From contig NC_015067.1 of the NCBI RefSeq assembly GCF_000196555.1, positions 1,080,001 to 1,112,000 of the forward strand: a stretch of 32,000 bases of DNA. Reading direction: 5' to 3'. The DNA is from Bifidobacterium longum subsp. longum JCM 1217. Lineage in GTDB: Bacteria > Actinomycetota > Actinomycetes > Actinomycetales > Bifidobacteriaceae. The position numbers and the translations under genes were made by a program. Below, piece by piece: positions 478 through 23,098 of the stretch. The notes beneath the pieces were generated by a model. It saw nothing but the letters and a program-made list of their open reading frames with translations. It did not search any database and was not told where the DNA came from. Every line of letters starts with the position of its first letter. The first letter of the stretch is position 1.

Positions 478-524
478 GGTCGGATGCCTTTCTTACGTCC
501 GCATCCCACGCATGCGTCCCCGGC

Positions 525-1013
525 TCACAGGCCCTTCGCCTTGAGGATCCCGTCCGCCTCTCTGGTGAAGTCATGCCGGCGGCGCAGCCGTCCCGCCTCG
601 TAGCGCGCATCACGCGCCGTCGGGTCGATGTCGCGCGCGAATCCGGCCATCACATCCGGGTCGATGCGGTGCGCGTATCGGAGCGCGATATACGGGTCGG
701 CCGTCCGGACGAGAGCGTGTTCGCCGCCCGGATGCTTCTCGCACGCGATCAGCCATGTGCCCGGATCGTCGCACCAGCCGATGAGGCGTTCCAACTGGCC
801 GGGCGTGCACTCCTGGCTGGCGATCAGCTGGTAGGCGACGTCCGGCGACCATGACGGGTTCGACTCCTCCATGAGCCGGACGAGCATGCCGATCTGTTCG
901 GGACGCAGTCTCGCGCTCGCGGCCAGATCCGTCATGACGCCGTCCCCGTGCTCGAACAGGGCGAGCAGCTGGGGTCCGTCCAGGGTGGCTATGAAATCGT
1001 CGAATCGTTTCAT
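525..1013 (-). CDS. hypothetical protein (162 aa from ATG 1013; the ORF is open to 1073)
   Basis: ATG 1013 (MKRFDDFIATLDG...) is preferred. It avoids overlap with the hipA 3' end, and the conserved block GGGGGACGCATACCCAGGGC sits directly upstream of it. Confidence 0.6.
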   Translation of the reverse strand: MKRFDDFIATLDGPQLLALFEHGDGVMTDLAASARLRPEQIGMLVRLMEESNPSWSPDVAYQLIASQECTPGQLERLIGWCDDPGTWLIACEKHPGGEHALVRTADPYIALRYAHRIDPDVMAGFARDIDPTARDARYEAGRLRRRHDFTREADGILKAKGL

Positions 1014-1050
1014 GCCCTGGGTATGCGTCCCCCTAATCAGGGAAACGGGG

Positions 1051-2394
1051 TCAGCGGCTACGCCAGTATCCACTGACCGGATATCCGCTTCGGATATGAG
1101 GGCTCACCCAGACGCCGCCCCCGCCGAAGGATGCCGTATTCGCCTTTGGCTTCGGCATCCTTCCGTGCAGTGGCTGGATGTTCTCGTTTGCCTTCGAAAC
1201 CGCCTTACGCATGGATTCCCTCAGCGAATCGGGCAAACCGGCCGATGCCTCATCCAGATGGTCGAGAACGGCTCCCGCCATGGTCCGGGCGATATGCGCC
1301 ACACGCTCCCCGTCCAAACCGGCCTCCTCCGCGAAGGCCTCCCAGTCGGATGGGGTGAGCAGTTCCGCGAATTCGACTCCGTTGATGGGCATCGCCATCT
1401 CCTGATCCACATGAGGCCATATTCTGGTGACCGTCATGTCGTACATCGGCGCGAAACGGAACCCGTTTTCGGCAAGAACAATCGAATAGTTCTTGCCATG
1501 GGAGTCCGAATCGCCCGATGAGACGTTGAAGGCAAGCCGGCGAACCCACTCGTATCCGGTTTCATCGCTTGCATCGAAATGATGCAGGAAACGGACGCAG
1601 CTTGCGGCGTCGATTTCATACTTGGATTCGGGATCCATGCCCATGGCCTGCGCTAGATCCTCGCAATGGATTCGTCTCACGTTGTTTCCATCCACGATGC
1701 GGTCGAAACGTCGGGTGATGAAGGCCTCCGTCCCATTCGCGGTGAGAACGCCATGCTCGGATACCGGCAATCCGCAAAGAGTCCCGAGCGTCAGGGTGGC
1801 ATCCTCCACCCTGTGACTGCCGGGGCAATCCCTCATTTCAGGTTTGATGATATGGGTGGAGGGGATGGACGCGTTGGGCCAGAGCCAGACACCGGCACGT
1901 CGGGCGAGCGTGAACTTGGGCTGGCCTCCGGCGATGGAGAAACGGCATTTCGGCGTATCCCGCTCATAGAACTCATCCTCATCATCCCGTGCGAACCAGT
2001 TGTATCCGTTCGCACGCACATATCCTATCTGATTGCCGATTTCCTCCTCGTCGAGGGGTTTCGCCTCGATGGGATGATGCGGGAGTTCGGGCTTGTCCGA
2101 GAATACGAGTCCGCCTACTGTATCCGCATCCGCAAGAAGTTTGAACATGTCCGTCGAATCCAGATGGAGTCGCAGCGCCATCCTACGACGGGCGTTCTCA
2201 TCGTCGGGAAGCAGGTTTTCGAGAAAGGCCGACGCCGTTTTTCCGGAAGCTTTCCCGGTTCTGGGCAGACTGAGGCTTATCGGCGCGCCTTCCTTGGAAT
2301 CATAGTGGAATGAAACACGTCCGCCGGAGGTTCGTATGAATTCCCCCACATGGTTTCCGTCGGCCCAGACATGCAGTCGTTCTCCTCGCATCAT
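1051..2394 (-). CDS. hipA: HipA-family serine/threonine kinase toxin (type II TA)
   Basis: 447 aa. The N-terminus matches the HipA coupling domain (LHVWADGNHVGEF...SFHYD), followed by ENLLPD. The catalytic loop reads DSHGKNYSIVL (D-x-H-x-K-N). ATGA overlap with the upstream HTH gene. Confidence 0.9.
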   Translation of the reverse strand: MMRGERLHVWADGNHVGEFIRTSGGRVSFHYDSKEGAPISLSLPRTGKASGKTASAFLENLLPDDENARRRMALRLHLDSTDMFKLLADADTVGGLVFSDKPELPHHPIEAKPLDEEEIGNQIGYVRANGYNWFARDDEDEFYERDTPKCRFSIAGGQPKFTLARRAGVWLWPNASIPSTHIIKPEMRDCPGSHRVEDATLTLGTLCGLPVSEHGVLTANGTEAFITRRFDRIVDGNNVRRIHCEDLAQAMGMDPESKYEIDAASCVRFLHHFDASDETGYEWVRRLAFNVSSGDSDSHGKNYSIVLAENGFRFAPMYDMTVTRIWPHVDQEMAMPINGVEFAELLTPSDWEAFAEEAGLDGERVAHIARTMAGAVLDHLDEASAGLPDSLRESMRKAVSKANENIQPLHGRMPKPKANTASFGGGGVWVSPHIRSGYPVSGYWRSR

Positions 2395-2693
2395 GCCTCC
2401 AGATATTCGGGCGGAACCCTATAGGGTTTGACGCCGAGTGTGGCGAACACACGCAGGGCCGCTTCCAACGGTACGATCCCGCGTTCCGCCATATCGGTCA
2501 CGATGCTTTCGGAGACGCCGCTTCTGTCCGCGATTTCTGACGGGGTTCGGCCGATTTCCGTGATTCGTGCGGAAATAATCTCGCCCGCCTTTTCCAATGA
2601 GGGCATGTCGCGAATGCCGTCATGCGATGGTTCTTCGCTGATGGAGATCTCATCGGTTTTCGACGGCAAGGCGTCGAATTCGCTGTAATCCAT
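2391..2693 (-). CDS. hipB: HipB-like XRE-family HTH antitoxin
   Basis: HTH segment: RTPSEIADRSGVSESIVTDMAERG. 4-nt ATGA overlap with hipA. ATG 2693 is preferred over 2723 because AAAGGAGCGG lies 7-8 nt upstream of 2693. Confidence 0.75.
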   Translation of the reverse strand: MDYSEFDALPSKTDEISISEEPSHDGIRDMPSLEKAGEIISARITEIGRTPSEIADRSGVSESIVTDMAERGIVPLEAALRVFATLGVKPYRVPPEYLEA

Positions 2694-2854
2694 TTCTCTT
2701 CCGCTCCTTTCCGGAAAAAGCATGCGTCCCGAAAACCAGAGGATTGCGAATCAGGCTGCTCGAACCATCATAACGTCGAATGCCTTATTCCGGCACGCGC
2801 CAGATGACGGCGGCGTGAAGACCGGCTGCCTGGCCGGGTTCCCGTCGAAAGGCA

Positions 2855-5653
2855 TCAGGACGCCTCCCCCGTGAGCCGCGCGTACCCGTCGAACAGGACC
2901 TTCAGGCGCGTATCGTCATCGTCCTTCAGCCATTTCCCCGCGCCGAACGCCACGTCCGCGATCTTGTCCAATTCCCGGTGGGCGGCGCGTAGGTCGGTCG
3001 GCATGTAGTCGGGATCGTACAGGTCTGCCAGGGACTGGCCGGGATGGTTGGCTCGAGCCACCAGCACGTTCCTGCCGGCCTCGATCAATGCGGCGCGGGT
3101 TTCATCGTCGAGGGCGGGCAGGGGCAGGTTGTTCCAAACCACCGTGTTGCTGAAACGGCAGCGTGATTCCAGTCGCCCTCCAATCGTCTGCTGCCATGTC
3201 ATGAACATGCGTGATTCGATGACGGCGAATGCGAGGCCATCCCGGTCGGGACTGGTGTACACCATGTCGCCGGCGATGATGTCCGGCGTGTACCAGTCGC
3301 AGGTCATGTATTCCCGATCCTCGCTGAACACCTTCGGGATCGCAAGATAGTTCATGGACGGCTGATGGTCGTCACGGAACAGCCAAGGTGTCGCACGATG
3401 CCTGTAGGCATCGCCCTTCATTGGAGCATTGCGACGGTATTCGGCGCATGCGTCGACACGCTTCTTCAGGAACGAGGATTTCCTCAGTTCCCCCGGCTCC
3501 GCGTCCCTGAGCCATAGGCACCAGCGGTCCGTGCCGTTGATGAGCTCGCGTCCCATGCGAAACGGCCGGACGAAGCGTGCGGCGATGGGATCGGCCATGG
3601 CCTTGGCATATTCCTCACGGTCGGCGAGCAGCAGGTTGCCTCCATCCAGGGGCATGGAACCGGAATCGGTGACATCGAGAAGAGGCGAGACCGGTCCCGT
3701 CTTCTGGCTTCGTTTGCCTACGTACAGGTCGGGGCCGTCTATGAGATACCCGTTGATGTTGTCCACGGTGCGGGCGGTCGGTTCCCCATTGATGTCCGCG
3801 TATTCGAACAGTACGGGCGCGGGCTTCGCTTTCCTGTCCAGGCCGATGATGACGACGTGGACGTGCGCGTTGTCCGTGGACTGCGCGTCCCATGCGAACG
3901 TGCGGTGCGCGAAACGGATATGCCAGCCGTCCGCATGCAACGGTTTGAACAGGGGTTCCACGGGCTGCCCCTGGGTGATCGAATTGGTGGTGACGAATGC
4001 GAACGCCGCATCCGGTTTAGACAGGTAGGAGGCGGCCTTCCGGTACCATCCGGTCGCGTAGTCGAGATATCCGTCATACTGGCGGCCCCACACGGTCTTC
4101 AGATCATCGGTCTGACCGGCGGTCTTGGTGACGTGTCCGATGAACGGCGGGTTGCCCATCACATAGTCGCAGTGGTCGCCGGGTAATAGTTCGTTCCAGT
4201 CGAGGCGCAGGGCGTTGCCTTGTTGAATATGGGCCGTATCGGTGAACGGGAGCCGGGGCAGGCCGCTGATGGTCGACTCGGTGTCGTCCAATGCTTGCTG
4301 TTCCGCGATCCAGAGCGCGGTGCGGGCGACCGCGCAGGCGAACCCGTTGATTTCAATGCCGTGGAAGTGGCTGATGCTGACTTTGACGGGGTTGATGTCG
4401 TCGCCGAGGTCGAGGGCGAGTTGTCCGTCCTTGTCCAAATCGGCGAGGATCCGGTTCTCGATGCGACGCAGTTCCAGATAGGTTTCGGTCAGGAAGTTGC
4501 CGGAACCGCAGGCGGGGTCGAGGAACCGGAGGCCGGCTATCTTGTCGTGGAGTTTGTTGAGCGCGTTGGTGCGGGAACCGCCTGCGACCGGCCTGGCCTC
4601 CGCCCCCTCGAGTTCGGCTTTCAAACCGTCGAGGAACAACGGGTCGATGAGCCTGTGGATGTTCTTGACGGACGTGTAGTGCATGCCTCCCTTGCGCCGT
4701 TCGTCATGGCTGAGGGTTTCCTCCATGAGGGAACCGAAGATGACGGGGCTGATGCCGCTCCAGTCGAAGCCTTCGCTGATTTCCAGCAGGGCATCACGCA
4801 GCTCCCCGGTCAACGGGGGCACGTCGATCCGGTCGGCGAACAGGCCGCCGTCCACGTAGGGGAACGCTTTCAACGGTTCCGGCAGGTAACGACGCCGCTT
4901 CTCGATTGGTGTGTCCAACGCTTCGAACAGGTCGTACAGGTCTTCGCCCAGACGTTCGGGCGTGGATGCCGCCACATAGTCGCGGAGCGCGTCCGGCCGA
5001 AACAGGTTCGCGTCCTCCGCATACAGGCAGAACACGAGGCGTACGGTCAGCATCGCCAGCGCATCATGCTCCGCCGGATCATCGGGATGTTCGAAGCATT
5101 CCGCCAAAGAGTCATGGAGTCTGGCGACCCGTCGGCCGGCTTTGACGGACAGTTTCTCCTGTTGGACGACACGGGAGTGCTCGTGGGCGAACAGGCGGCC
5201 GATTTCGTTGATGTGCTCCGGCAGGCCGGCAAGCGTGAACTCCGATTGCGGGGTGCGGGCCAACGGGTCGGCTTCCAGATCGTAGAGGCGGAATGTTCCG
5301 AAATTGCAGGTGATGAGCACGGACGGGTGTTCCGATGGCGGCAGGCTGTCGGAATACCGTTTCGCCTGTTCCACCGGGGTGACCATGGTTCCCTGACGTG
5401 GTTCCGGCCTGTCCAAATCCACGCCGAGGCTCTTCTGTTCGACGAGCACACGGGCTTGGATCATGAGCGCGTCGATGAACCCGTCCAATGCGGTGCGCCG
5501 TTCGAACCAGAGCGTCTGCCTGTCGCTCGTGTTCGGGATGAGCAGCACCTTGTCCAACAGGTCACGCCAGTACTGTTGGGTCTCGGATTTCTCGTCGCCT
5601 CGTCCCGCCCATGATTCGGCGAACTTGGCCGCCCTGCTCTTCAGATCATCCAT
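2855..5653 (-). CDS. MmeI-family type IIL/IIG restriction-modification enzyme (fused endonuclease, N6-adenine methyltransferase and target-recognition domain), 932 aa
   Basis: N-terminal D...EXK nuclease motif (FIDALMIQARVLVEQKS). Motif I FLDPACGSGNFL. Motif IV VMGNPPFIGH. Size matches MmeI-type enzymes. Start set at ATG 5653 (MDDLKSRAAKF...); the Arg-rich 149 codons upstream in the ORF track overlap a better gene in another frame. Confidence 0.85.
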   Translation of the reverse strand: MDDLKSRAAKFAESWAGRGDEKSETQQYWRDLLDKVLLIPNTSDRQTLWFERRTALDGFIDALMIQARVLVEQKSLGVDLDRPEPRQGTMVTPVEQAKRYSDSLPPSEHPSVLITCNFGTFRLYDLEADPLARTPQSEFTLAGLPEHINEIGRLFAHEHSRVVQQEKLSVKAGRRVARLHDSLAECFEHPDDPAEHDALAMLTVRLVFCLYAEDANLFRPDALRDYVAASTPERLGEDLYDLFEALDTPIEKRRRYLPEPLKAFPYVDGGLFADRIDVPPLTGELRDALLEISEGFDWSGISPVIFGSLMEETLSHDERRKGGMHYTSVKNIHRLIDPLFLDGLKAELEGAEARPVAGGSRTNALNKLHDKIAGLRFLDPACGSGNFLTETYLELRRIENRILADLDKDGQLALDLGDDINPVKVSISHFHGIEINGFACAVARTALWIAEQQALDDTESTISGLPRLPFTDTAHIQQGNALRLDWNELLPGDHCDYVMGNPPFIGHVTKTAGQTDDLKTVWGRQYDGYLDYATGWYRKAASYLSKPDAAFAFVTTNSITQGQPVEPLFKPLHADGWHIRFAHRTFAWDAQSTDNAHVHVVIIGLDRKAKPAPVLFEYADINGEPTARTVDNINGYLIDGPDLYVGKRSQKTGPVSPLLDVTDSGSMPLDGGNLLLADREEYAKAMADPIAARFVRPFRMGRELINGTDRWCLWLRDAEPGELRKSSFLKKRVDACAEYRRNAPMKGDAYRHRATPWLFRDDHQPSMNYLAIPKVFSEDREYMTCDWYTPDIIAGDMVYTSPDRDGLAFAVIESRMFMTWQQTIGGRLESRCRFSNTVVWNNLPLPALDDETRAALIEAGRNVLVARANHPGQSLADLYDPDYMPTDLRAAHRELDKIADVAFGAGKWLKDDDDTRLKVLFDGYARLTGEAS

Positions 5654-6275
5654 GATTCCCAATGGTATCCGGTTTTCCGCATGCCGGTCGGATATCGACC
5701 ACATCATGCGGCGTGATCGTCCATAGGCAGGCTTGGATCCACCGGTCCGGCAGCCGTTTCGGATCCGCGATCGCGTTCGCCCTGTACTGGAGCCGTTTCT
5801 TTTCGGCCGGATCGTCCCAATGCTCGTCCAGCCACCGGTCGTATTCGGCGGGAGTCCACCTGTCGGCATCCAGCGGGGCGCACGGCCACCGGTTGATGAC
5901 GCAATGGTATTGGTCGAAATCCGTGCAAAGCACCCGGTTCTCATCGACCCGCAGATGCAGGAGCTCCAACCCGTCGTACTGGTGGCGGAAGCCCGGATAC
6001 CGTCGGTCGGGACGCGTATGCGCCCTGCCTTTCGAATCGACCCAGCGCGCCCACGCCCACAAGGGGGCCGCGTCCGGGTCCGGACGCGGCATGCCGGCAT
6101 GCTCCATTTCGCCCATCATCCACTCATAGGCGGGGCTGATGCCGTCCCACCAGTCCGCGTCGCCGTCGGCAATCGACCGTTCGCGGGCCGCCTTCCATGA
6201 GGGCGTGTACGAGCCGGAACGGTCGAACGCGGCCCTGACATCCGGCCACCGTTGGAACGAATACAGATCGATCAG
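5646..6275 (-). CDS. DUF3841-like protein (about 209 aa if initiated at CTG 6275; 157 aa if at ATG 6119)
   Basis: Pattern recalled for DUF3841: PLWAWARW...RPDRR...LHLRVDENRVLCTDFDQYHCVINRW...IQACLWTI. The frame stays open and protein-like for 52 codons upstream of ATG 6119. AGGAGG (6287-6282) + TTTTTT + CTG (6275-6273) follows directly after the stop of the preceding gene. 8-nt overlap with the RM gene start. Confidence 0.6.
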   Translation of the reverse strand: MIDLYSFQRWPDVRAAFDRSGSYTPSWKAARERSIADGDADWWDGISPAYEWMMGEMEHAGMPRPDPDAAPLWAWARWVDSKGRAHTRPDRRYPGFRHQYDGLELLHLRVDENRVLCTDFDQYHCVINRWPCAPLDADRWTPAEYDRWLDEHWDDPAEKKRLQYRANAIADPKRLPDRWIQACLWTITPHDVVDIRPACGKPDTIGNHG

Positions 6276-6291
6276 AAAAAACCTCCTTTAG

Positions 6292-6639
6292 TCAGCATTC
6301 CCATTTGACGCGGCGACGGTACAGGCGGGGATCGTCCCAATCGTCGTCCATGAGGCCGGTATCCGCCTCGCGCACGGCGAGACGGCAACGATCGCGAACC
6401 GTATGGCGGCCCACGTAATCCGGATACCGGTCATCCTCGTAGTCATGCCAGCTGTGCCAGCGCCGGCCGGATGGGATGTGCGCCTTCCGGCTCTGCGAAT
6501 ACGCATATGCGGTCACGTCGCCTTCAAGGGTCGGCGGTTCGGTCGGGTGCATCCAGTTGTGTCGCAGGTACGCGTACCCGTGCTCCAGCGCCTCGCGTTC
6601 GAGCACACGGTACGGCTTGTCCTTGAACGTTCGGGACAT
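6292..6639 (-). CDS. hypothetical protein (115 aa), first gene of the RM operon
   Basis: ATG 6639 preceded by GGAAGGAAAAAACGA. Trp/Asp/Arg-rich but non-repetitive sequence. Its stop lies 16 nt before the DUF3841-like start. Confidence 0.6.
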   Translation of the reverse strand: MSRTFKDKPYRVLEREALEHGYAYLRHNWMHPTEPPTLEGDVTAYAYSQSRKAHIPSGRRWHSWHDYEDDRYPDYVGRHTVRDRCRLAVREADTGLMDDDWDDPRLYRRRVKWEC

Positions 6640-6770
6640 TCGTTTTTTCCTTCCATTAGGTTTGTTCGCCTAGTGGAAGTCGTGAGAGAGCAGCATCGCT
6701 TTTCCTTTCCGATGGCCAACTATACAAAGAACAAACGAATAGTCTTTGCTGTTATTGCGTATCCAATGTA

Positions 6771-6800
6771 TTGATATTGTACGTCAAGTTGACGTACAAT
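6771..6800 (+). promoter_or_regulatory. promoter plus palindromic operator of the DUF1778/GNAT TA operon; likely leaderless
   Basis: TTGATA (6771-6776), 18-nt spacer, TACAAT (6795-6800), with ATG at 6808 only 7 nt after the -10. A perfect inverted repeat ATTGTACGTCAA-G-TTGACGTACAAT (6776-6800) spans the spacer and the -10. Confidence 0.55.
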
Positions 6801-6807
6801 ACACGGT

Positions 6808-7086
6808 ATGACAAGCACTATTACGGAACCGGCACGCAGCTCACGCCTCAACATGCGCCTCACGCCAGAACAGCGCCAAACCATAGATATAGCGGCCTCT
6901 CTCAAAGGCTCCTCCATAACACAATGGGCCATCGACCATCTCGTCACCGACGCGCGCCGGGATATCGAAGAGGAGACCGTCACCCGTCTGCCCTCCAAGG
7001 CATTCGACGAATTTCTCAAGGCGCTTGACAGACCCATGCCGAAGGCCGCGAAGGATCTCATCGAAATGGAACCCGACTGGATATGA
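6808..7086 (+). CDS. DUF1778 (TacA/AtaR-type, RHH) antitoxin
   Basis: 92 aa. RLNMRLTPEQRQTIDIAASLKGSSITQWAIDHL is the characteristic DUF1778 N-terminus. ATGA overlap with the GNAT gene. Confidence 0.9.
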   Translation: MTSTITEPARSSRLNMRLTPEQRQTIDIAASLKGSSITQWAIDHLVTDARRDIEEETVTRLPSKAFDEFLKALDRPMPKAAKDLIEMEPDWI

Positions 7087-7574
7087 GATTCACCACACCA
7101 CGGCGCATAGAGTCCTCCGACATGCTCGATGGCTTTGACTGCGGCATTACGCCCATTGATGAATGGCTGTCCACGAGATCCCGTTCTGCCGAAAAACAGG
7201 GAACGGCCGTCGCGTACGTCACCTACGCCGAATCAGGGGAACTCGCCGGATTCTACTCTCTCAGCGCACACGCGATGGAACGCTCCAATATCGCCGGCGG
7301 ATGGCTACAGAGGAACGTTCCCGAGCGAGTGCCCATGATACTGCTCGGCATGCTCGGCGTGGACAGACGTTTCCAAGGCGAAGGCCTCGGCAGGAAACTG
7401 TTGCACGATGCGGTCATACGTTCCTTGAACATCAGCTCCGAACTCGGGGCGAGGGCCCTCATAGTGGATCCCGTGGATTCAGCCGCAGCTAGATTCTACG
7501 AGAACAACGGCTTCCAGCACATTCCGGAATCAGAACGAATGTTCCTCAAACTCGCGGGCAAGCATCTCGTCTAG
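7083..7574 (+). CDS. GNAT-family acetyltransferase toxin (TacT/AtaT-type)
   Basis: 163 aa. FDCGITPIDEWL near the N-terminus. Acetyl-CoA motif RRFQGEGLGRKLL. C-terminal FYENNGF. Its TAG stop shares the palindrome CTAG (7571-7574) with the stop of the convergent minus-strand gene. Confidence 0.9.
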   Translation: MRFTTPRRIESSDMLDGFDCGITPIDEWLSTRSRSAEKQGTAVAYVTYAESGELAGFYSLSAHAMERSNIAGGWLQRNVPERVPMILLGMLGVDRRFQGEGLGRKLLHDAVIRSLNISSELGARALIVDPVDSAAARFYENNGFQHIPESERMFLKLAGKHLV

Positions 7575-10087: not shown

Positions 10088-10110
10088 TGACTCCCAGGCA
10101 GCCGGGCGGG

Positions 10111-12491: not shown

Positions 12492-12847
12492 CCGTTCCTT
12501 TCCTCGTTGGCCTTCGACCCCGCGGGCATGCGTCCCGGTATGCCGAGCCGACGGCATTCAAGGCATTGCCCGTCCGTCCAGCCCGTCGGGTCGAGCATGA
12601 TGTTCGCGCAGGATACGCATTCGGGAAGCCGGTGCGCCGGGCAGTAGTGCAGGTCGCGGTCGAGTCCGGGATGGTCGTCGGCGTACAGGATCTGCCAGCC
12701 GGCGTCCATGCGCGCATCGTTCAGCAGCTCATCCTCGTCCGCCCGCCATTCGCTGTCGTCATACCGGTTTTCGCAGCCGGGCGCGTCACAGGCGAGCATG
12801 AGCAGGGGCGTCGCGTACCCGTCGAACCGTTGGGCGAGCATGGTCAT
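12488..12847 (-). CDS. hypothetical Cys-rich protein (119 aa), possible zinc-binding
   Basis: Starts MTMLAQRFDGYATPLLMLACDAPGCENRYDD. Also carries HYCPAHRLPECVSC and QCLECRR. ATGA overlaps at both ends. The Arg-rich upstream part of the 292-aa track ORF was rejected. Confidence 0.55.
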   Translation of the reverse strand: MTMLAQRFDGYATPLLMLACDAPGCENRYDDSEWRADEDELLNDARMDAGWQILYADDHPGLDRDLHYCPAHRLPECVSCANIMLDPTGWTDGQCLECRRLGIPGRMPAGSKANEERNG

Positions 12848-13721: not shown

Positions 13722-13722
13722 G

Positions 13723-16247: not shown

Positions 16248-16480
16248 CTCTTTTCAAGCTGTTCCGCCAGTTCGTCAAGCCAGGCATCGACGGCTTCGCT
16301 CTCATACCCGTAGGAGCCGCAGGGCAGGTTCAGATGCCTGATCTCGTCGGCGGCAAGGCCTCCCGGCTCCCCGGGGTGGGCCAGGGTGAACGAGGCGAGG
16401 CGCTGCACCAGGTCGACGGGTACCGGCATGTAGGATGCGGGAGCCGATACGAGCGGGAACATCGGGTATGCCATGCTCAT
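16244..16480 (-). CDS. hypothetical protein (78 aa)
   Basis: ATG 16480 forms an ATGA overlap with the RNA ligase stop (MSMAYPMFPLVSAPASYMPVPVDLVQRL...). The upstream part of the 205-aa track ORF was rejected. Confidence 0.5.
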   Translation of the reverse strand: MSMAYPMFPLVSAPASYMPVPVDLVQRLASFTLAHPGEPGGLAADEIRHLNLPCGSYGYESEAVDAWLDELAEQLEKR

Positions 16481-17514
16481 AGTCCGTTCTTCGTCAGGTA
16501 TTTGTTGTTGATGATTTTGAAGCACCGATTGGCTCCCAGTTCGTTCGCCAATCCTTCGGACAACTGCTGGTCTTCGCGCAGATGCCAGACGATGCCCTCG
16601 TCCAGACGGTCTTTGGTGACGTTGCCACGCAACCCGTCTACTTTGGCGATCATGTCGTCCACGCTCCCCGTCAATGCCCACTCGTTTTCGTCGAGTTCGG
16701 GAACGGCAAGATTCGGCATTCCCGTCGGCCACTGGTCGCGGTCGATCTTGTGATGGTCTTTCCAGACGGCGAAGACGAACGGACGTTGGGCCGGCAGTTT
16801 CAAACGGTTTGATTGGATACCGGGGCCACATAGCTCGAACTGGACGGCCATGCCGGGCCATAGCATCTTGTCCAACTGGAATCTTTTGGCGAGCCGCATG
16901 TTCGAGGACATGGAGTCAAGCTCCCAGTTGCGTGAGTACACGTGGACTTGTCCTCGTTCGTCCATGCTGAGCGTGGTGCTGGCGCCATCGACCTTCACGG
17001 TCGGCACGGCTTTCAACGTCTTGATTTCATCCCAGTGGTCGGTGAGCGTCTGCAAACGTGGCGCGTCCGACTTGGAGCAGGGCGCGTCGAACCGGCCAAT
17101 CTGAGCACCGCCCATCGGCAGGGGCTCCTCGTATTTGAGCACATTCGCCTTATCGGTGATGTCCGTGCCGACAGGGGGCGTATACCGGAATCCGAGTTCA
17201 TCCAAACGCATGATGAGACCCTGCGAATACACTCCGCGCAGTTTCACGGTGCGCAGCACATGGCCGGTGATTTCCATGGAACCGACGATCATGGTCTTCT
17301 GACCGCGAGCCTGGAACGCCTTGTAACGCGGGTCATAGGCGGGCAGAAGACTGTCCGTCTCGAAATAGGCGACCCTGTCCCCCGGCTTCAGATGCATGTC
17401 CTTGCCGACGACCACACGCCACCCCAATATGCGGGCGACTTCGATGCGATCGGCCCCCTCGATGGGCTCGATGTTGGTGATTTCCTGTACGCTGACGAGT
17501 TTCCTGCTGCTCAT
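16477..17514 (-). CDS. RNA ligase, DRB0094/Rnl5-like family
   Basis: 345 aa. The N-terminal OB-like segment KLVSVQEITNIEPIEGADRIEVARILGWRVVVGKD...GDRVAYFETDSLLP is characteristic. Nucleotidyl-transferase motif I is VKVDGAS. Confidence 0.8.
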   Translation of the reverse strand: MSSRKLVSVQEITNIEPIEGADRIEVARILGWRVVVGKDMHLKPGDRVAYFETDSLLPAYDPRYKAFQARGQKTMIVGSMEITGHVLRTVKLRGVYSQGLIMRLDELGFRYTPPVGTDITDKANVLKYEEPLPMGGAQIGRFDAPCSKSDAPRLQTLTDHWDEIKTLKAVPTVKVDGASTTLSMDERGQVHVYSRNWELDSMSSNMRLAKRFQLDKMLWPGMAVQFELCGPGIQSNRLKLPAQRPFVFAVWKDHHKIDRDQWPTGMPNLAVPELDENEWALTGSVDDMIAKVDGLRGNVTKDRLDEGIVWHLREDQQLSEGLANELGANRCFKIINNKYLTKNGL

Positions 17515-17609
17515 GCCGCGACTCCCATGCTGTATCGTTCGGGCGAGATGGTGATGATCATCTCGTTTTCGTCGTAGGCTCCGTCTTTCATGCCTGTGAC
17601 CTTTGTCAT
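17511..17609 (-). CDS. possible micro-ORF (32 aa) coupled to the RNA ligase
   Basis: Hand-translated as MTKVTGMKDGAYDENEMIITISPERYSMGVAA. Its TGA overlaps the ligase ATG (ATGA). There is no other support. Confidence 0.25.
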   Translation of the reverse strand: MTKVTGMKDGAYDENEMIITISPERYSMGVAA

Positions 17610-17652
17610 ATTCAAACCGTGTCCATGTCCCGCTCCCCGCCGGTTCGCGTGG

Positions 17653-17874
17653 TCAGACGGGGCATGGGGCGCGCCCCTCGGACACGGTGTCCGATTCGAT
17701 GGTCAGGACCGGTTCGCCCTCGTCGTCGACGAGCGTGGCGGGCCGTCCCGTCGCGTCCGCCGCGGCGCGCGTGGCGGCGAGCATGCCGGCGAACGTGAGC
17801 CCGCCGGGCAGTGGGGTCGTGTAGTCGACGGGCCCGTAGGCGCCGTCCCGGGTCGCGTGGATCTCGTATTCCAT
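17653..17874 (-). CDS. hypothetical protein (73 aa), first gene after the non-coding iteron region
   Basis: ATG 17874 ([25 protein letters not shown]...) is directly preceded by GGGGACGCATACCCGGGGGC. The upstream His/Thr/Met-rich part of the 128-aa track ORF is a translation of the iterons. Confidence 0.5.
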
Positions 17875-17902
17875 GCCCCCGGGTATGCGTCCCCATACAC
17901 GC

Positions 17903-18208
17903 GGTCCGGGTGTATGCATTCCGGTCCGCGTGTATGCATCCGTATGCATCCGGGGATGCATACATCTTTTCTTTCCGTTTCGGCTTGGTTCCGACGTTCC
18001 GGGGATGGTCCGGAGGCGTGTATGCATTGTATGCATCATTCCCTTATAGGGGATTCGGGAAAAAGGAAGGAAACCCCATATATTGATGCATACAATGCAT
18101 ACAAGATAAAGGAATTATATTTTTTCCTTTATTTATAAGGGTTTTCGGGCTTTTTCCGGGCTTTTTCTGTATGCATCCCCGGATGCATACAGATGCATAC
18201 ACGCATAC
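17903..18208. repeat. iteron / nested inverted-repeat region around an AT-rich core (candidate origin, oriT or operator array)
   Basis: GTATGCAT at 17912, 17932, 17942, 18020, 18029 and 18169. ATGCATAC at 17956, 18086, 18095, 18183 and 18193. 37-bp arms 17928-17964 and 18168-18204 match at 36 of 37 as an inverted repeat. Inner perfect 17-bp inverted repeat at 18020-18036 and 18086-18102. AT-rich stretch at about 18100-18140 with TATAAT on the minus strand (18119-18114). Confidence 0.85.
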
Positions 18209-18227
18209 AAAACGGGCCGGAAAACTA

Positions 18228-18284
18228 TACAATATTGTAAAGGTCGGAGGTGAGACTTTACAATATTGTAAAGCCTCACCTCCG
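18228..18284. promoter_or_regulatory. two TACAATATTGTAAAG boxes; the second is embedded in a 40-bp near-perfect palindrome
   Basis: Boxes at 18228-18242 and 18259-18273. The palindrome CGGAGGTGAGaCTTTACAATATTGTAAAGcCTCACCTCCG (18245-18284) has one mismatched pair. Confidence 0.8.
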
Positions 18285-18372
18285 GGATGCGGTCGCCCCG
18301 CCGGCACATCGGGATGCCTTTTTTTCAGTTCGCGACCAGATCCGACGCCATATCCATCGGCTCGCCGCCTTG

Positions 18373-18393
18373 GCCCCGCCGTTCCGGCGGGGC
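18373..18393 (-). terminator. candidate GC-rich hairpin terminator (no U-tract)
   Basis: GCCCCGCCG-TTC-CGGCGGGGC forms a 9-bp all-GC stem with a 3-nt loop, about 100 nt downstream of the stop at 18491. The lack of a T-run makes the assignment tentative. Confidence 0.3.
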
Positions 18394-18490
18394 GCGCGCC
18401 GAACCTCACGGACAACGGTTCCTTGCCCAAATCGGGCTGGAAAACGGCTGATCCGGTTCTGAAGAGCCGGGCTTGCGCCGCAAAAACCGG

Positions 18491-18802
18491 TCAGGGTTTT
18501 CTCCTGTCCAGGTCGAGTTCGAGAAGCGTGCGCACCCGGTCGAGTTCGCCGGCGACGTCCGTCATCCACGCGGCGGCCCGTCTGAGACCGTCCGGCGTGA
18601 CCGTCCCGCCCGGCGTCGGACCGCGCCGGGCCCGGAGCCGGATGCCGCCGGCGGGCGTGGGGCAGGCGTCCACGCGGGGCGGCTCCTCCGGGTCGCCGTC
18701 AAGCCGGAATCCCGTGACCCGGTAGCGGACGGTCCCGTCGTCCCGGCGGATCCAGTCGATCCGGTAACGGCCCGTATGGCCCAATGTCAGGACGTCGTTC
18801 AT
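18491..18802 (-). CDS. hypothetical protein (103 aa)
   Basis: ATG 18802 (MNDVLTLGHTGRYRIDWIRRDDGTVRYRVTGFRLDG...). Last gene before the non-coding region. Confidence 0.5.
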   Translation of the reverse strand: MNDVLTLGHTGRYRIDWIRRDDGTVRYRVTGFRLDGDPEEPPRVDACPTPAGGIRLRARRGPTPGGTVTPDGLRRAAAWMTDVAGELDRVRTLLELDLDRRKP

Positions 18803-18880
18803 GGCCGCCCCGTCCGGGGCGTGCGGCGCACGACCCATTCGACCGGCCGTCCGCCGGGCAGCCCCTCGGGGCGGATGGTC

Positions 18881-19210
18881 TCAGTCGACATAATCGTATC
18901 CCGTCCAGTCGCGCAGCAGCTCGCATACGGTGACGTCTTTGACGAGCAGCACGTGATGATGGTCCTCCGCGTCCTCGAGCGTGACGAGCGCGCACCCGGT
19001 GCGGTCCGGCTTCGGGTCCATGGGGTCGGCGACGTCCTCCCATGCGACGGGCGTGCTCCCGTCCGCCATGTTTTCGTCGTACGGGGCGGGAGCCCACGTG
19101 CCGTCCGGCAGACGTTCGAACGTGTCCGTGGAATCCCGCCAGGCGTCCATGAGCCGTGTTTTGAGATGACCGGTGATGATGGCCCTGAACTGATGATCGT
19201 TGTCGTTCAT
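18881..19210 (-). CDS. hypothetical acidic protein (109 aa)
   Basis: ATG 19210 (MNDNDHQFRAIITGHLKTRLMDAWRD...) is directly preceded by GGGGACGCATGCCACGGGGC. Confidence 0.55.
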   Translation of the reverse strand: MNDNDHQFRAIITGHLKTRLMDAWRDSTDTFERLPDGTWAPAPYDENMADGSTPVAWEDVADPMDPKPDRTGCALVTLEDAEDHHHVLLVKDVTVCELLRDWTGYDYVD

Positions 19211-19264
19211 GCCCCGTGGCATGCGTCCCCGGACGGGCATGGGACGCGTCCGCGGCGAAGCGCC

Positions 19265-19669
19265 TCACCGGGCGTACGGGATCGCGTGCAGGCCGGCCCC
19301 GTCCGCCAGCAGCATGCCCCGGTCGCCGATCGGCGTGCCGTCCGGCATGGTGCTGAACGTGTCGCACAGCCACACGCCCTCCACGTTACCGGCCGACGGG
19401 ACGGGCGTATGGCCGGACACCTGGGTCAGGCGGCCGTCGTAGTCCCCGTGGCCGGGACGCGCCCACAACGGTCCGTCGTCGTCCATGTACAGGGCGGCCA
19501 GGCTTCCGGGACGGTCCGGCAGGCGGTTCAGACGGGCCGCGATCCGGTCGGCGGTCATGCCCGTCCAGGCGTGCCCGAACCGGCGGATCCCCCACCGGCG
19601 GGTGAGTCCCGCGTGCGTGGCGACGATCGTGCCGTCCGTCCATGCGATCCGCGTCGGGATGTCCTTCAT
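19265..19669 (-). pseudogene. C-terminal fragment of a calcineurin-like metallophosphoesterase (lambda-PP-like), separated from its N-terminal part by an IS
   Basis: Carries IVATHAG (motif IV) and VSGHTPVP (motif V). Motifs I-III lie in the fragment at about 21291-21611, on the other side of the TnpB element. Confidence 0.65.
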
Positions 19670-19679
19670 GAGCTCTTGA

Positions 19680-19830
19680 CGTCCTCCCCTCGGCTGAAGC
19701 CGGGGGATTCCTCCCGTCCTGACGATGGGAGAGGTTCTGGTCTCTAAGAGACCGCCACGGATTCGCGTGTAGCGTTTCCGTTGGTCTTACGTCCCTGTTC
19801 GACCGGGGTGCCGTCCGCGCCCCACAGGTT
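19680..19830 (-). ncRNA. candidate TnpB-associated omega RNA (right-end RNA)
   Basis: Position only. It covers the 3' end of tnpB plus about 65 nt downstream, including the bulged hairpin at 19686-19706. Ends are not determined. Confidence 0.3.
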
Positions 19831-21192
19831 TTCCGACGTGACGGCGAGCGTGTCCAATCCCCGTTCGAGGATGTTCCGGGCGGCGTTCACGTCGGCGTTC
19901 GCCGTGTACGAGCATTTCTTGCAGACGAAGACCGCTTGGCTCTCGCGGTTCTTCTTGTCCACATGCCCGCATCGGCTGCATGTCTGGCTCGTGTAGGCGG
20001 GGTTGACGAGTATCATGCCCACGCCTTCGGCCAGTCGGGTCTTGTAGGCGAGCATGGAGGACAGTCGTCCCATGCTCGCCTGTCTCAGGCTCCGGTTGAG
20101 TCCGTGTTTCGCGGCCTGCCCGTTGGGCAGGTATCCGCCCTCATGCAACGGGTCGGGAACAGGCTTGTTGCGGCGGCTCATGTTCGCCAACCGTAGGTTC
20201 TCCAACACAATCAGGTCGTTCTCGCGCACGAGCCGGGTCGTGTACTTCTGGTACACGTCGTCCAGTATGCGCTTGGATTTCGCGTGCAGTCTCCCGATTT
20301 CCAGCCGTGTTCTCCGATACGCGCGGCTGGTCTTGCCGCTCTTCGCGTACTCCCGTTCACTGGAGTATCCCGCGTTCCCAGCCCTGCGGGCTTGGGCCTT
20401 CTGCCGTTTCCTGATTTCACGGTCGATGGCCTTCAACCTGTCTTTCGGCAGGTCCATGAACCGTCCGTCGGAGTCGGCGGCGGCGTGCACGCATCCACGG
20501 TCGATGCCGACCGCCCTGCCGGTCGGCTCATGCTTGACGGGCGTTGGGGTGTTGTTGAACACGACGGTGCGGTTCGTCCAATCCACTTGGATGGCCGTGT
20601 ATTCGCGTATCGGCTGGCTGACTCGCACGTGCAGGAGGATGCGGTAGCGTAACGGTTCACCCGGCAATGACATGCCTTTGGGATTCTGTCCGGTGATGGT
20701 TATGATGCCGTGGTTGCGGTTGACCTGCCGGTATACGGCGTTGCGTCCCCCGTTGTGCCAGCAGACGAAACGCTGCCCGTCACGCTTGTATGATTTGAAC
20801 CGGGGCATTCGTCCCGGCTTCAACCGTTTGCCTAGCAGGGTCTTGCGTCGTTGCACGGCGGTGAACCATTCGACCCGTTCGATTCGTGTCGGTGACTCCA
20901 ATATGAGGGACGGCACCGCCGCCAGCCAAGAACATTCGCTTCGGGACCGGCTGACGCTGCGAGTGTCGGGTTCGCCTCCGATGGGGACGAGGGTTTTGTC
21001 CTTGCCGTATTTGCAACGGTTGGAACGCAATTGGTTGAACCGGTATCGCCAAGCGTCGCACAGCCAGTCCATCGCCTGACCGCCCGAACGCGCGTACAGT
21101 CTTTCGGATTCGGGGTCGTGCCGGTCGGCGTAGCCGGTGAACGGCTTGGCTCCGTCCAACGTCACGCGTTCCAACACGACTTTCTGACTCAT
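19744..21192 (-). CDS. tnpB: TnpB (RuvC-like RNA-guided endonuclease, OrfB_IS605 family)
   Basis: 482 aa. RuvC-I is AVGIDRG and RuvC-II is IVLENL. Zinc finger is CSRCGH...CKKCSY. RuvC-III is ANADVNAARNI. TGgTAGAAT, a -10-like sequence, lies upstream on the minus strand. Confidence 0.9.
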   Translation of the reverse strand: MSQKVVLERVTLDGAKPFTGYADRHDPESERLYARSGGQAMDWLCDAWRYRFNQLRSNRCKYGKDKTLVPIGGEPDTRSVSRSRSECSWLAAVPSLILESPTRIERVEWFTAVQRRKTLLGKRLKPGRMPRFKSYKRDGQRFVCWHNGGRNAVYRQVNRNHGIITITGQNPKGMSLPGEPLRYRILLHVRVSQPIREYTAIQVDWTNRTVVFNNTPTPVKHEPTGRAVGIDRGCVHAAADSDGRFMDLPKDRLKAIDREIRKRQKAQARRAGNAGYSSEREYAKSGKTSRAYRRTRLEIGRLHAKSKRILDDVYQKYTTRLVRENDLIVLENLRLANMSRRNKPVPDPLHEGGYLPNGQAAKHGLNRSLRQASMGRLSSMLAYKTRLAEGVGMILVNPAYTSQTCSRCGHVDKKNRESQAVFVCKKCSYTANADVNAARNILERGLDTLAVTSENLWGADGTPVEQGRKTNGNATRESVAVS

Positions 21193-21290
21193 AAGGCTGA
21201 TTCTACCACATTCGCGTATAATATGGGAATAGTAATGCCGTGATTCCTCCCCACGCCTAAAGGCGGGGGCACCCTCACGGCAAAACGGTG

Positions 21291-21611
21291 GACGCGGCGC
21301 TGCGCGCCTGGTTTGAAGCCCGGCGCCTGGGCGCGTACGCGCGCGAACGAGGCGGATCCGCGTCGCATGTAATACGGGACGTCATGGTTGCCGAGCAGCG
21401 GGACGATCTCCCGTCGCCCGGATTCGGCCCGGTACCATGAGGCGAACCGTTCCATGAACCGTATCATGCCCGTGTTCGACACATGCCAGTCGTCGCATAT
21501 GTCGCCGAGCAGCACGATCCGGTCGGCATGCTCCCGGTCTGCCATGTTCGAGATGAAAGGCAGCAGGTCGCCTTTCGCATGCAGGTCGCCGGCGAACAGG
21601 GTGCGGTTCAC
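21291..21611 (-). pseudogene. N-terminal fragment of the metallophosphoesterase (3' boundary approximate)
   Basis: GTG 21611 in a GTGA overlap with the upstream stop. FAGDLHA (motif I), LLGDICDDW (motif II) and LLGNHD (motif III). The frame then runs into the IS left-end hairpin. Confidence 0.65.
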
Positions 21612-22213
21612 GCCCCGCCCCCTTCCGGCAGGACCGCCGTGCTGTCCGACGTGGCGACGGACACGAGGCCGGGACGGGTCAGGAGCACGCCGGTCCTGAC
21701 CATGGCGTCCGCGTCCAGCCACCAGATCGCGTACCGGCGGTTCGCGTGTACGACCCGGACGGGCGTCTCCGGATCGTCGGGGTCGAGGACGCGCAGGACG
21801 CGGACCGGCCGGGTCGCGTCCACGCAGCGCATCACGGTGTCCGCGGGCGTCCAGTCCCAGGTGGCGGCGCGCCAGCCGGCCAATGCGGCCAGGGCGAGCA
21901 GGAGGATGACGCCCAGCGCGTTCTGGCCGGCCATGAACGAGACGACGGCGAGCAGGAGCACGCCCAGCATTTGCAGGATCATGGGCGTCAGGGCGCGACG
22001 CCATTCCGTGCGGGTCGGCCGGGGCACGGGGCTCCACGGGTCGCGCGGCCGCGTCTTCGTTTTCGCGGGTCTCGGTCCGCCCGTGGGCCGGACCGAGGGC
22101 GGACGGTCCGGTTTCACCTCGTGGAATGTTTCGGTTCGTTCGTCGGGGCCGGCGTGCGGACGGTCGGCGGCCAGGCGTCGTTCGAGCTCGTTGACCGCGC
22201 TCACCGCGCTCAC
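21608..22213 (-). CDS. hypothetical membrane protein (201 aa)
   Basis: GTG 22213 in a GTGA overlap. Pro/Arg-rich N-terminal region, then two hydrophobic helices (MILQMLGVLLLAVVSFMAG, LGVILLLALAALAGW), then a soluble C-terminal domain. Confidence 0.55.
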   Translation of the reverse strand: MSAVSAVNELERRLAADRPHAGPDERTETFHEVKPDRPPSVRPTGGPRPAKTKTRPRDPWSPVPRPTRTEWRRALTPMILQMLGVLLLAVVSFMAGQNALGVILLLALAALAGWRAATWDWTPADTVMRCVDATRPVRVLRVLDPDDPETPVRVVHANRRYAIWWLDADAMVRTGVLLTRPGLVSVATSDSTAVLPEGGGA

Positions 22214-22434
22214 CTGGCCTTCTTGCCGCGACGGCGGAGGATGACGCCCGGTTCGACGATGTGGTAGCCGCCGCATTCCGGGCATTTGCGGATCGTCTTG
22301 CCTTCCGGCAGGCGGCCGAGCGCGATCCGGGCGTCCACGGGGGTCGCGTAGCGGGTGCGGGAGCATTTGCGGCTGAACATGGCGTCGGCCTTCAACGGGC
22401 GGGGCTGGTTTTTCTCAAGGTTCCTGCGTGGCAT
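22210..22434 (-). CDS. small basic zinc-ribbon-like protein (74 aa)
   Basis: ATG 22434 preceded by AAAGGAAAA. Contains RKCPECGGYH. Lys/Arg-rich ends. Confidence 0.5.
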   Translation of the reverse strand: MPRRNLEKNQPRPLKADAMFSRKCSRTRYATPVDARIALGRLPEGKTIRKCPECGGYHIVEPGVILRRRGKKAR

Positions 22435-22476
22435 GGAATGGTTTTCCTTTCGTTTGCCGGGTTGCTGTGCGCCGGT

Positions 22477-22983
22477 TCAGACGGCGGCTTCGATGGCGAG
22501 GCGCGACAGTTCCGCCGAGTCGAACGCATGTTCGGCGATCCCCTTGCCGAGGGTGACGGTCACGCCGCCGGACCGGCCCGGCTGGTATTTCACTCCGTCC
22601 GGTATTTCTCCCCCGTGTTCGCGGATGAGACGTTCGAGGAAACGTTCGCCCATGGCGTTCGGGGTCGGGTAGTTGACGGTGATGACGGCCGGCTGCCCCT
22701 CGCAGTCCAGTCCGTAGTGGCTGAGGAAGTCCGCGTAGGCGAGCGGATCGTCCACCTTGTAGTAGCCTTCCCCGTCCCTTTTCACGAGCACGGTGGCCGC
22801 GTCGAGGCCGGCGAACACCGCGTTCTCCTTCGGACTGTCCGCGTCATGCGTGCGAAGATACTGGCGTTTCGCCCCGTCCAGCGCCTTCGTGATCTTCTTC
22901 TGGAGGATGGCCAGTCCGGCCATGTGGGCGAGCAGCATGTCGGGCGTCATCTCCGACCAGTCGCATGGTTCGGTTTCCGTCAT
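22477..22983 (-). CDS. hypothetical protein (168 aa)
   Basis: ATG 22983 (MTETEPCDWSEMTPDMLLAHMAGLAILQKK...) preceded by GGGGGAGGAAAGGAAG. The same frame stays open upstream to 23520 (see findings). Confidence 0.65.
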   Translation of the reverse strand: MTETEPCDWSEMTPDMLLAHMAGLAILQKKITKALDGAKRQYLRTHDADSPKENAVFAGLDAATVLVKRDGEGYYKVDDPLAYADFLSHYGLDCEGQPAVITVNYPTPNAMGERFLERLIREHGGEIPDGVKYQPGRSGGVTVTLGKGIAEHAFDSAELSRLAIEAAV

Positions 22984-23030
22984 GATTCTTCCTTTCCTCC
23001 CCCGTCCGGCACGGGGGTCTTGTCCGTATC

Positions 23031-23098
23031 CGCGTATGCGTCCCCGTCCGTGACGCATACGCGCCCGTATGGCCGGAAATCGGTGGAATTCCGGCCAT
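23031..23098. promoter_or_regulatory. two adjacent inverted repeats in the leader of the 22983 gene
   Basis: CGCGTATGCGTC-N9-GACGCATACGCG (23031-23063) has perfect 12-bp arms and contains the recurrent motif. ATGGCCGGAA-N10-TTCCGGCCAT (23069-23098) has perfect 10-bp arms. Confidence 0.6.

Follow-up and report, generated by a model that had tools for sequence, protein, structure and literature searches.

What is the role of a short sequence that recurs, always in one orientation, ahead of gene starts in a chromosomal region of Bifidobacterium longum subsp. longum JCM 1217? The region studied here is a stretch of 32,000 nucleotides (contig NC_015067.1, positions 1,080,001 to 1,112,000 of the forward strand; hereafter the window), in which an earlier note had described a strand-locked 9-mer. 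It had proposed that the 9-mer could be a binding site for an element-encoded regulator, an internal promoter element, or a signal for translation initiation or RNA processing. Judged from its sequence, the window belongs to a Bifidobacterium element that is integrated in the chromosome and forms a mosaic with megaplasmids of the pMP7017 type. The best reading of the repeat, hereafter the box, is that of an element-specific promoter or regulon box, whose nearest precedent is the 34-bp motif of pMP7017. Among the options initially listed, our analysis favoured a transcription signal at the DNA level (a promoter or a site for an element factor) and spoke against translation and structured RNA.

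An exhaustive search of the window recovered exactly the seven reported copies of the 9-mer ATGCGTCCC (at 512, 1023, 2722, 12528, 17885, 19221 and 23036), all on the plus strand. The chance expectation originally given, 0.24, was somewhat low for a sequence of 62% G+C, since dinucleotide-preserving shuffles yielded 0.61 copies on average and never more than 3, but the conclusion holds: none of 100 shuffles reached seven copies. When two mismatches were allowed, the 12-mer gave 26 matches in the window, compared with 10.3 expected. Codon-position G+C and the lengths of open reading frames (ORFs) placed almost all genes of the window on the minus strand, and the box therefore reads GGGGACGCAT[G/A]C upstream of starts. 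All seven copies precede a minus-strand ATG, at a distance of 7-50 nt (Table 1), rather than the six at 10-55 nt counted previously. The three shared blocks of 22-23 nt ending in ATG (1013, 17874 and 19210) were present as described. Alignment of 19 or 43 sites gave the consensus (CC)GGGACGCAT(G/A)N, with about 12 informative positions: CC, GGGACGCAT, G/A and then mostly C/G. The reading frame through the box differs among copies, so that its conservation lies at the nucleotide and not at the protein level, and a protein-coding origin of this conservation was rejected. Two of the three weaker variants that had been proposed (25004-25014 and 31808-31818) are kept at the same places in related contigs and are members of the family. 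The third, at 8258, has three mismatches and sits in DNA common to pMP7017, and we found no support for it as a member of the family. An inverted copy on the plus strand, at 23050-23060, had been overlooked. The searchable literature returned no description of the box sequence and only primer coincidences, in a search that was limited.

To place the box in its genetic context, we compared the window with related DNA. Segments 2900-17575 and 25600-31600 are 86-95% identical to the Bifidobacterium breve conjugative megaplasmid pMP7017 and to B. longum megaplasmids. Exact-protein look-ups showed that the whole arrangement sits in a 2.34-Mb chromosome (CP137052.1, CP049767.1), where the chromosomal copy adjoins a tyrosine integrase and then chromosomal MerR, FHA and DUF881 genes. 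A 46.7-kb composite of the element (hereafter comp) was built from three overlapping loci; in comp coordinates the window runs, on the opposite strand, from 6737 to about 38700, and it has an IS30 insertion in addition. This insertion carries an IS30/ISBlo4-like transposase gene (10123-11427, plus strand), whose exact protein was found in 14,560 index blocks of the contig collection, and it is absent at the same site in CP137052.1 and pMP7017.

In the element, the 9-mer core occurs 13 times in the forward and 0 times in the reverse orientation, compared with 1.2 expected from third-order Markov simulations. Eleven of these 13 cores are fully intergenic, while non-coding DNA makes up only 11.7% of the element (P = 4e-9). 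We then counted the 11-mer GGGACGCATRC across DNA samples, exactly and with one mismatch. The element (44 kb) contains 10 exact and 12 one-mismatch copies. Neither the B. longum-type chromosome sampled around ten copies of the same IS30 (198 kb) nor pMP7017-type DNA (123 kb) contains an exact copy, and each has five with one mismatch. Within the window, the box-bearing segments (1-2900, 12014-12554, 17575-19700 and 21300-25600) are those not common to pMP7017. The box characterizes a family of pMP7017-related DNA, comprising chromosomally integrated elements as well as megaplasmid-like contigs, and is absent from the host chromosome sample. The proposal that it links the hipBA region with the long gene string is correct when taken more broadly, the box being a hallmark of the whole family and a marker of those parts of the element that pMP7017 lacks. 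Elements of the pMP7017 type are present in about 10% of microbiome samples (PMC10832533).

The family extends beyond the window. A pattern scan of IMG/VR revealed the same modules on contigs of 43 kb and 186.7 kb; two other matches (L021 and L023) contain a single copy each without enrichment and were judged to be due to chance. Contigs L034 and L035, fetched via a neighbouring protein, and L038 carry 15-20 copies per 20 kb, most commonly in the form CCGGGACGCATGG. The box-rich contigs of the L034/L035 group carry tRNA arrays and TnpB elements. Comparison of box-rich contigs with phage records gave no near matches, and comparison of L035 with PLSDB plasmids gave no match. The box is conserved even across diverged elements: in L036 and L037 it again stands ahead of genes, though these contigs have almost no genes in common with the window and essentially one specific protein in common with the other contigs. 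By comparison, the 34-bp motif of pMP7017 is present at 2-5 copies per 20 kb in pMP7017-type contigs and absent from box-rich contigs, and the reverse also holds for the box. The motif was found in L001, L006 and L009-L011, with 0 matches at up to 8/30 mismatches in comp, L019, L020, L034 and L035; in the window, the form AYATGYTATACTGAATATGTCCACATAAAA gave 0 matches at up to 3 mismatches. Because the 34-bp motif and the GGGACGCAT box are mutually exclusive, these data suggest two lineages with different private promoter codes.

The orientation of the box follows that of the genes. Of the 43 exact cores found in comp, L034 and L035, 42 share the strand of the genes, and in L036, where the genes are flipped, the boxes are flipped along with them. 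Divergent intergenic regions contain back-to-back copies, each aimed at its own gene (comp 2742-2767, L012 8146/8153, L036 1479/1492 and L037 739/745), and consist almost wholly of the two boxes, one such region being only 66 bp long. The window contains a pair of this kind, formed by the inverted copy and its minus-strand neighbour (Table 1); in the variants L012 and L015, the inverted copy lies 8 nt ahead of a divergent 91-aa gene.

We further measured the distance from the 11-mer to the next start at 100 unique sites. Two spacing classes emerged. In the short class (22 sites), the ATG lies 7-9 nt past the 11-mer, a Shine-Dalgarno sequence is present at only 1 site and the base at position -1 is a pyrimidine at 21. 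In the long class (39 sites), the start is 18-40 nt downstream, with a mode of 27, and 36 sites have a Shine-Dalgarno sequence. The short-class start of TnpB is backed by a Pfam domain that aligns from residue 1. Apart from the box, the alignment of 19 or 43 sites showed a Shine-Dalgarno region, rich in purines and 20-30 nt further on, and no other conserved position between -45 and +50.

The surroundings of the box are also informative. Some copies lie directly past strong intrinsic terminators (comp 1840, L035 9964 and L035 6342); the last of these begins 12 nt past the stem at 6297-6330, and the ATG follows 8 nt further on. Another copy heads about 350 nt without an ORF, followed by 7 tRNA genes. 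This copy at the head of a whole tRNA array is better evidence than the one degenerate copy found just upstream of a single tRNA, and a direct tie between the box and tRNA genes was rejected. Overall there is about one box per kb, not one per operon.

Taken together, we lean towards the view that the box is the core of a transcription-initiation signal private to this family, which would act as a single element, direct initiation about 8-9 nt downstream and require a dedicated factor. With the start placed about 8-9 nt past the 11-mer, the box would span roughly -19 to -9. Where the ATG lies 7-9 nt downstream, the resulting mRNA would be leaderless; elsewhere, it would have a leader of about 10-30 nt with a normal Shine-Dalgarno sequence. 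A pyrimidine at -1 followed by A at +1 is the usual start-site dinucleotide, and Actinobacteria are well known to translate leaderless mRNAs from a 5'-terminal AUG. This placement of the start is based on the 7-9-nt phase to ATGs lacking a Shine-Dalgarno sequence, on the Y(-1)/A(+1) rule and on the second class, with leaders of Shine-Dalgarno length; the fixed ATG distance, combined with Y(-1)/A(+1) at 21 of 22 sites, would imply a fixed start point. The literature searched provided nothing useful on start sites or leaderless mRNAs in Bifidobacterium, and the RNA 5' ends at the boxes, as well as the identity of the factor, are parts of the promoter reading that we infer. Since boxes follow terminators and stand back to back, the signal would act in initiation at the DNA level and not in processing or translation.

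The reader of the box would be a dedicated factor, either sigma-like or an activator that retargets the host RNA polymerase, rather than the housekeeping sigma factor alone, because there is no TANNNT in any register and no -35 partner, and because the box is missing from the host chromosome sample. When the start is set at the A of the short-class ATGs, positions -12 to -7 read AT(G/A)CNN and not TATAAT or TANNNT, and in no register of the box is an A in the second place of the hexamer combined with a T in the sixth. A TTGACA-like -35 element was not detected, as no position from -45 to -3 exceeded 0.35 bit in the 19 or 43 aligned sites. Matches to sigma-70-like promoters were not enriched in L035 (2 compared with 3.0 expected). 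Several other candidates were rejected. If GGGAC were an ECF-type -35 element, the implied -10 would land on the Shine-Dalgarno sequence and the start inside short-class genes; the spacing does not fit the GG-N10-GC of sigma-54; and GGGA as a Shine-Dalgarno-like sequence would lie 15 nt from the ATG. A loading site of the ops type for a NusG paralogue (RfaH-like), which would be a single non-template-strand element in the leader of a long operon, did not fit either, given about one box per kb; no NGN or KOW domain was present in any Pfam list.

A more specific version of the promoter reading can be formulated, in which the box is a complete single-element promoter read by an element-encoded initiation factor, minimal sigma-like or RNA-polymerase-retargeting, for example a 157-aa candidate protein. 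The family would then possess a private transcription system for leaderless or short-leader mRNAs, and a sister lineage (pMP7017) would use a different private motif. We consider this version tentative and rather doubtful. The protein is basic (33 lysine or arginine residues) and helical, and is the sole specific protein common to comp, L034, L035, L036 and L037. Its gene, at comp 2260-2733, lies some 4 kb past the end of the window and is one of only five in the composite that run against the main direction, and this divergent gene has its own short-class box. The family is narrow, with 48 clusters that are all at least 63% identical. An AlphaFold2 model (pLDDT 74) showed long helices, and a search against PDB sequences gave no match. 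The only lead is a 14-residue helical repeat that the protein has in common with the N-terminus of an HNH endonuclease.

Several points weigh against the promoter reading. The box resembles no known recognition element of a sigma factor or RNA polymerase. Searches of about 80 element proteins (Pfam, NCBIfam, PHROGs) and of precomputed Pfam lists revealed neither a sigma factor nor an RNA polymerase nor a NusG-like protein. For a few copies, the distance to the next start is 45-83 nt. The 157-aa candidate had no Foldseek fold match and was not detected on the two box-bearing IMG/VR contigs (186.7 kb and 43 kb); for these reasons, and because an alignment scan of GTDB representative genomes revealed no homologue, we treat it only as a lead. 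Finally, a repressor operator lying over weak promoters would yield much the same distribution of sites.

This last possibility is the main rival. An element-encoded repressor would bind the asymmetric box at promoters and in intergenic spaces and silence the element in an orientation-dependent manner, as the immunity repressor of Cluster A mycobacteriophages does, while the true promoters would be weak and unrecognisable. The sites resemble those of such a system: they are asymmetric and direction-locked, occur about once per 1-2 kb and occupy short gaps between genes, in many cases right against the preceding stop codon; L5-type stoperators have the same hallmarks (PMC9283540). The absence of the box from the host chromosome sample, the integration of the element beside a tyrosine integrase and the presence of a divergently encoded basic protein with its own box copy would also fit. 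However, a repressor leaves unexplained both the 7-9-nt phase to ATGs lacking a Shine-Dalgarno sequence and the Y(-1)/A(+1) rule. Nor does it account for where transcription would begin in the approximately 30 nt that separate a terminator from a short-class ATG, or in the 66-bp divergent region made almost wholly of two boxes. No helix-turn-helix (HTH) repressor was found in the 46.7-kb composite, window included, by Pfam, NCBIfam or PHROGs; the only regulator-like match was a WhiB-like protein, and an XRE-type HTH protein was found in L038 only. We judge the operator hypothesis unlikely.

Alternatively, the signal could act at the RNA level, either where transcripts are cleaved or processed into monocistronic, in part leaderless, mRNAs or where a translational regulator binds. 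The strand-locked position of the box between co-directional genes, close to start codons, would agree with this, and processing 8 nt downstream could generate leaderless mRNAs as well. However, back-to-back divergent copies have no upstream co-directional transcript to be processed, other copies lie right past strong terminators, and still others have no downstream ORF (in the leader of the tRNA array, and at the inverted copy before the Transposase-2 RNA listed in Table 1). When 49 sites were folded, no consistent structure emerged (mean z -0.63; 5 of 49 below -2). The box sequence also lacks workable complementarity to the anti-Shine-Dalgarno at the established Shine-Dalgarno spacing. A role in translation initiation is disfavoured because the box neither contains nor replaces a Shine-Dalgarno sequence at a workable distance, and because some copies have no downstream ORF. 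An RNA-level function is therefore improbable.

The weakest hypothesis is that the box is a junction, that is, a site or microhomology for cassette exchange or insertion sequences. It draws on the mosaic structure of the elements. L034 is unrelated to comp upstream of the comp 1840 box and identical from the box on, with homology beginning 2 nt before it. After the 162-aa gene, box 510-521 precedes three different genes in the window, L018 and L020, and the homology of the window with L018 and L020 ends just past the box. The segment comp 5222-6118 ends at a box, an IS605-type element lies directly after ..GGACGCATGA in 2 of 3 insertions, and the box-bearing segments are those not common to pMP7017. 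We nevertheless regard a junction function as very improbable. Breakpoints at shared promoters are to be expected when identical 10-12-mers dispersed over the elements recombine; a junction function explains neither the spacing classes nor the Y(-1)/A(+1) rule nor the orientation at divergent genes; and no integron-type integrase or dedicated recombinase tied to the boxes appears in the Pfam lists. We read the mosaic junctions at boxes as a by-product of many identical short sequences and not as their primary function.

Homology between related elements often breaks at boxes, for example at comp 1838, comp 6118 and window 505-521, as if a box and its gene had moved as a cassette, and the same upstream flank precedes a different gene at L035 7973. 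The IS605-type element (L007 488 and 6118; L034 8448, minus strand; L039 10283) has the left end CCGAAAAAA(A/T)T(C/T)ATGCCCCGCGCTTCAGCGCTGGGG and carries its own box-like sequence 27 nt ahead of tnpB. It inserts after ..ATGA, twice directly past a GGACGCATGA box and once truncating the 157-aa candidate gene.

A tie between the box and nearby iterons had also been proposed, on the basis of a common GCATAC core. Between 17900 and 18215, an AT-rich stretch of the window is surrounded by 11 ATGCATAC units, which occur in both orientations. A 38-bp palindrome beside them, GGAGGTGAGGCTTTACAATATTGTAAAGTCTCACCTCC, presents the promoter-like hexamers TTGTAA-18-TACAAT on both strands. The core is indeed shared and one true box ends the array, but the iterons form a distinct, though related, repeat family. 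The link is nevertheless weak: the T-for-C variant occurs only in the iteron cluster, the fifth base of the dispersed box is never T, and L034-L038 lack the array. Unlike the iterons of a Rep protein, which cluster by an AT-rich origin and a rep gene, the dispersed copies of the box are single and gene-proximal, and only 17883-17894 abuts the array. An identical specificity for box and iterons was rejected as unproven; the common core may reflect related DNA-binding specificities. The iteron and palindrome region could be an origin or a master regulatory region. Of note, CP137052.1 and CP049767.1 read about 99 N at this region.

Table 1. Copies of the box and associated features in the 32,000-nt window.
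Feature	Position	Strand	Remarks
Box GGGGACGCATGC	510..521	-	3 nt past stop of 162-aa gene; 32 nt before ATG 477; Shine-Dalgarno AAGAAAGG between; long class
Box GGGGACGCATAC	1021..1032	-	7 nt before ATG 1013; no Shine-Dalgarno; short, leaderless-type class; after hipA stop
Box CGGGACGCATGC	2720..2731	-	26 nt before ATG 2693; heads hipB-like/hipA pair; Shine-Dalgarno AAAGGAG
Box CGGGACGCATGC	12526..12537	-	34 nt before ATG 12491 (105-aa gene); within 540-bp segment absent from pMP7017
Box GGGGACGCATAC	17883..17894	-	8 nt before ATG 17874 (73-aa gene); short class; edge of iteron array
Iteron, AT-rich and palindrome region	17900..18300		11 ATGCATAC; only the last unit, 17883-17894, is a true box
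Box GGGGACGCATGC	19219..19230	-	8 nt before ATG 19210 (109-aa acidic protein); short class
Box GGGGACGCATAC	23034..23045	-	50 nt before ATG 22983 (168-aa gene, first of gene string)
Inverted partner GTGACGCATAC	23050..23060	+	Back to back with 23034-23045; 8 nt before ATG 23069 (67-aa ORF)
Transposase-2 RNA (RF03015)	23125..23193	+	Rfam 72.5 bits; opposite to gene strand; 64 nt past inverted box copy
Variant GGAACGCATAC	25004..25014	-	71 nt before ATG 24932 (113-aa gene, then sortase); kept in L012, L015, L016 and L019
Variant GTGACGCATAC	31808..31818	-	45 nt before ATG 31762 (97-aa gene); kept in L012 and L015

Other features lie close to the boxes of the window. In the hipBA-like pair (1051-2693, minus strand), the HipA kinase gene has an upstream partner of 100 aa in which Pfam detected no HTH. 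A gene encoding a 1081-aa MmeI-type restriction-modification enzyme (2855-6100, minus strand) adjoins the hipA pair; the box heads the hipBA-like pair and not the MmeI gene. A TnpB element of the IS605 family (19744-21192) interrupts a metallophosphoesterase gene (19265-22037, minus strand), the N-terminal part of which starts at 21189, upstream of the element, while the C-terminal part occupies 19265-19669; in L036 the homologue is uninterrupted and matches both parts. A very basic 74-aa protein encoded at 22210-22434 (minus strand), with 20 lysine or arginine residues and a zinc-ribbon-like pattern (C-x26-CxxC-x3-H), had no family match and could be a nucleic-acid binder. The Transposase-2 RNA is a possible non-coding product of the inverted box copy; in the variants L012 and L015, its place is taken by the divergent 91-aa gene. 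In related loci, the variant at 31808-31818 comes after the WhiB-like gene. ARAGORN predicted a 91-nt tRNA-Trp at 13182-13272 (plus strand), antisense to the gene string, which is probably a false positive because it was not confirmed by Rfam.

B. longum and B. breve are key commensals of the infant gut. If the promoter reading is true, with a private and non-canonical start signal ahead of roughly one gene per kb, several consequences would follow. The elements would govern the expression of their genes without depending on the promoter code of the host. The box would reveal how dozens of genes that lack annotation, many encoding small acidic proteins, defence or toxin-antitoxin modules, are organized into regulons and operons. 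An undiscovered transcription factor would be indicated, and the engineering of bifidobacteria would gain compact orthogonal promoter parts. The position of the box at mosaic junctions may also help to explain the shuffling of gene cassettes between elements.

We finally compared the box with known systems. The late promoters of phage T4 (TATAAATA), recognized with gp55, and the promoters of T7-type RNA polymerases are single-element signals read by a dedicated phage factor. Like the box, they form one block at a fixed distance from the start, have no -35 element, occur in many copies confined to the element and are independent of the host consensus. In contrast, the block formed by the box would be more distant from the start (about -19 to -9), with 8 unconserved nucleotides directly ahead of it; neither a gp55-like sigma factor nor a single-subunit RNA polymerase was detectable in about 100 kb of related DNA. 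Iterons, exemplified by the sites of pMP7017 RepB (PMC8313286) and by the ATGCATAC array, resemble the box through the GCATAC core and the true box that forms the last array unit. They differ in being clustered, in both orientations, on the flanks of an AT-rich stretch, whereas the box is dispersed, and the critical bases of the RepB site, GGnCnAnnR (PMC8313286), do not fit it.

Within Actinobacteria, the closest formal analogues are the stoperators of Cluster A mycobacteriophages and the SAS repeats of Cluster K. Stoperators, bound by a monomeric repressor of the L5 gp71 type, are asymmetric 13-bp sites numbering more than 20 per approximately 50 kb, located at promoters and in short intergenic spaces, and their orientation correlates strikingly with the direction of transcription (PMC9283540). 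The box likewise forms many asymmetric intergenic sites oriented with transcription. Stoperators, however, have no fixed phase to start codons and accompany recognisable sigma-A promoters, and their repressor, composed of an HTH and a stoperator domain, has no detectable homologue in the composite element. SAS (GGGATAGGAGCCC) is an asymmetric 13-bp repeat present in 11-19 copies, nearly all in one orientation, just upstream of the starts of non-structural genes; it favours ATG starts, is absent from the host and is found with unrelated gene families (PMC3203893). The box is similarly an asymmetric, one-orientation repeat of an actinobacterial mobile element that is absent from the host. SAS is found 3-7 bp ahead of the start codon and includes the Shine-Dalgarno core AGGAG (PMC3203893), whereas the box lies at 7-9 or 18-40 nt and has no AGGAG, a separate Shine-Dalgarno sequence being present at 36 of 39 long-class sites. 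The box also occurs before non-coding DNA and directly past terminators, and this points to transcription and not to translation.

The nearest precedent is found in the same family of Bifidobacterium elements. The 34-bp motif of pMP7017, AWAYATGYTATACTGAATATGTCCACATAAAAWA, is promoter-associated and gene-oriented, occurs in about 19 copies a few tens of nucleotides upstream of starts, is specific to the plasmids, with no copy in the chromosomes of bifidobacteria, and stands ahead of about one quarter of the coding capacity (Dineen et al. 2024, PMC10832533). Its sequence is unrelated to that of the box: it contains a canonical extended -10 element, TGTTATACT, followed by a presumed operator, and its leaders are about 30 nt long. 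The box, in contrast, is GC-rich, spans 10-12 nt, has no -10 hexamer and includes a class located 7-9 nt from the ATG without a Shine-Dalgarno sequence. Both are nevertheless element-specific and oriented with the genes they precede, and their distributions are strictly complementary.

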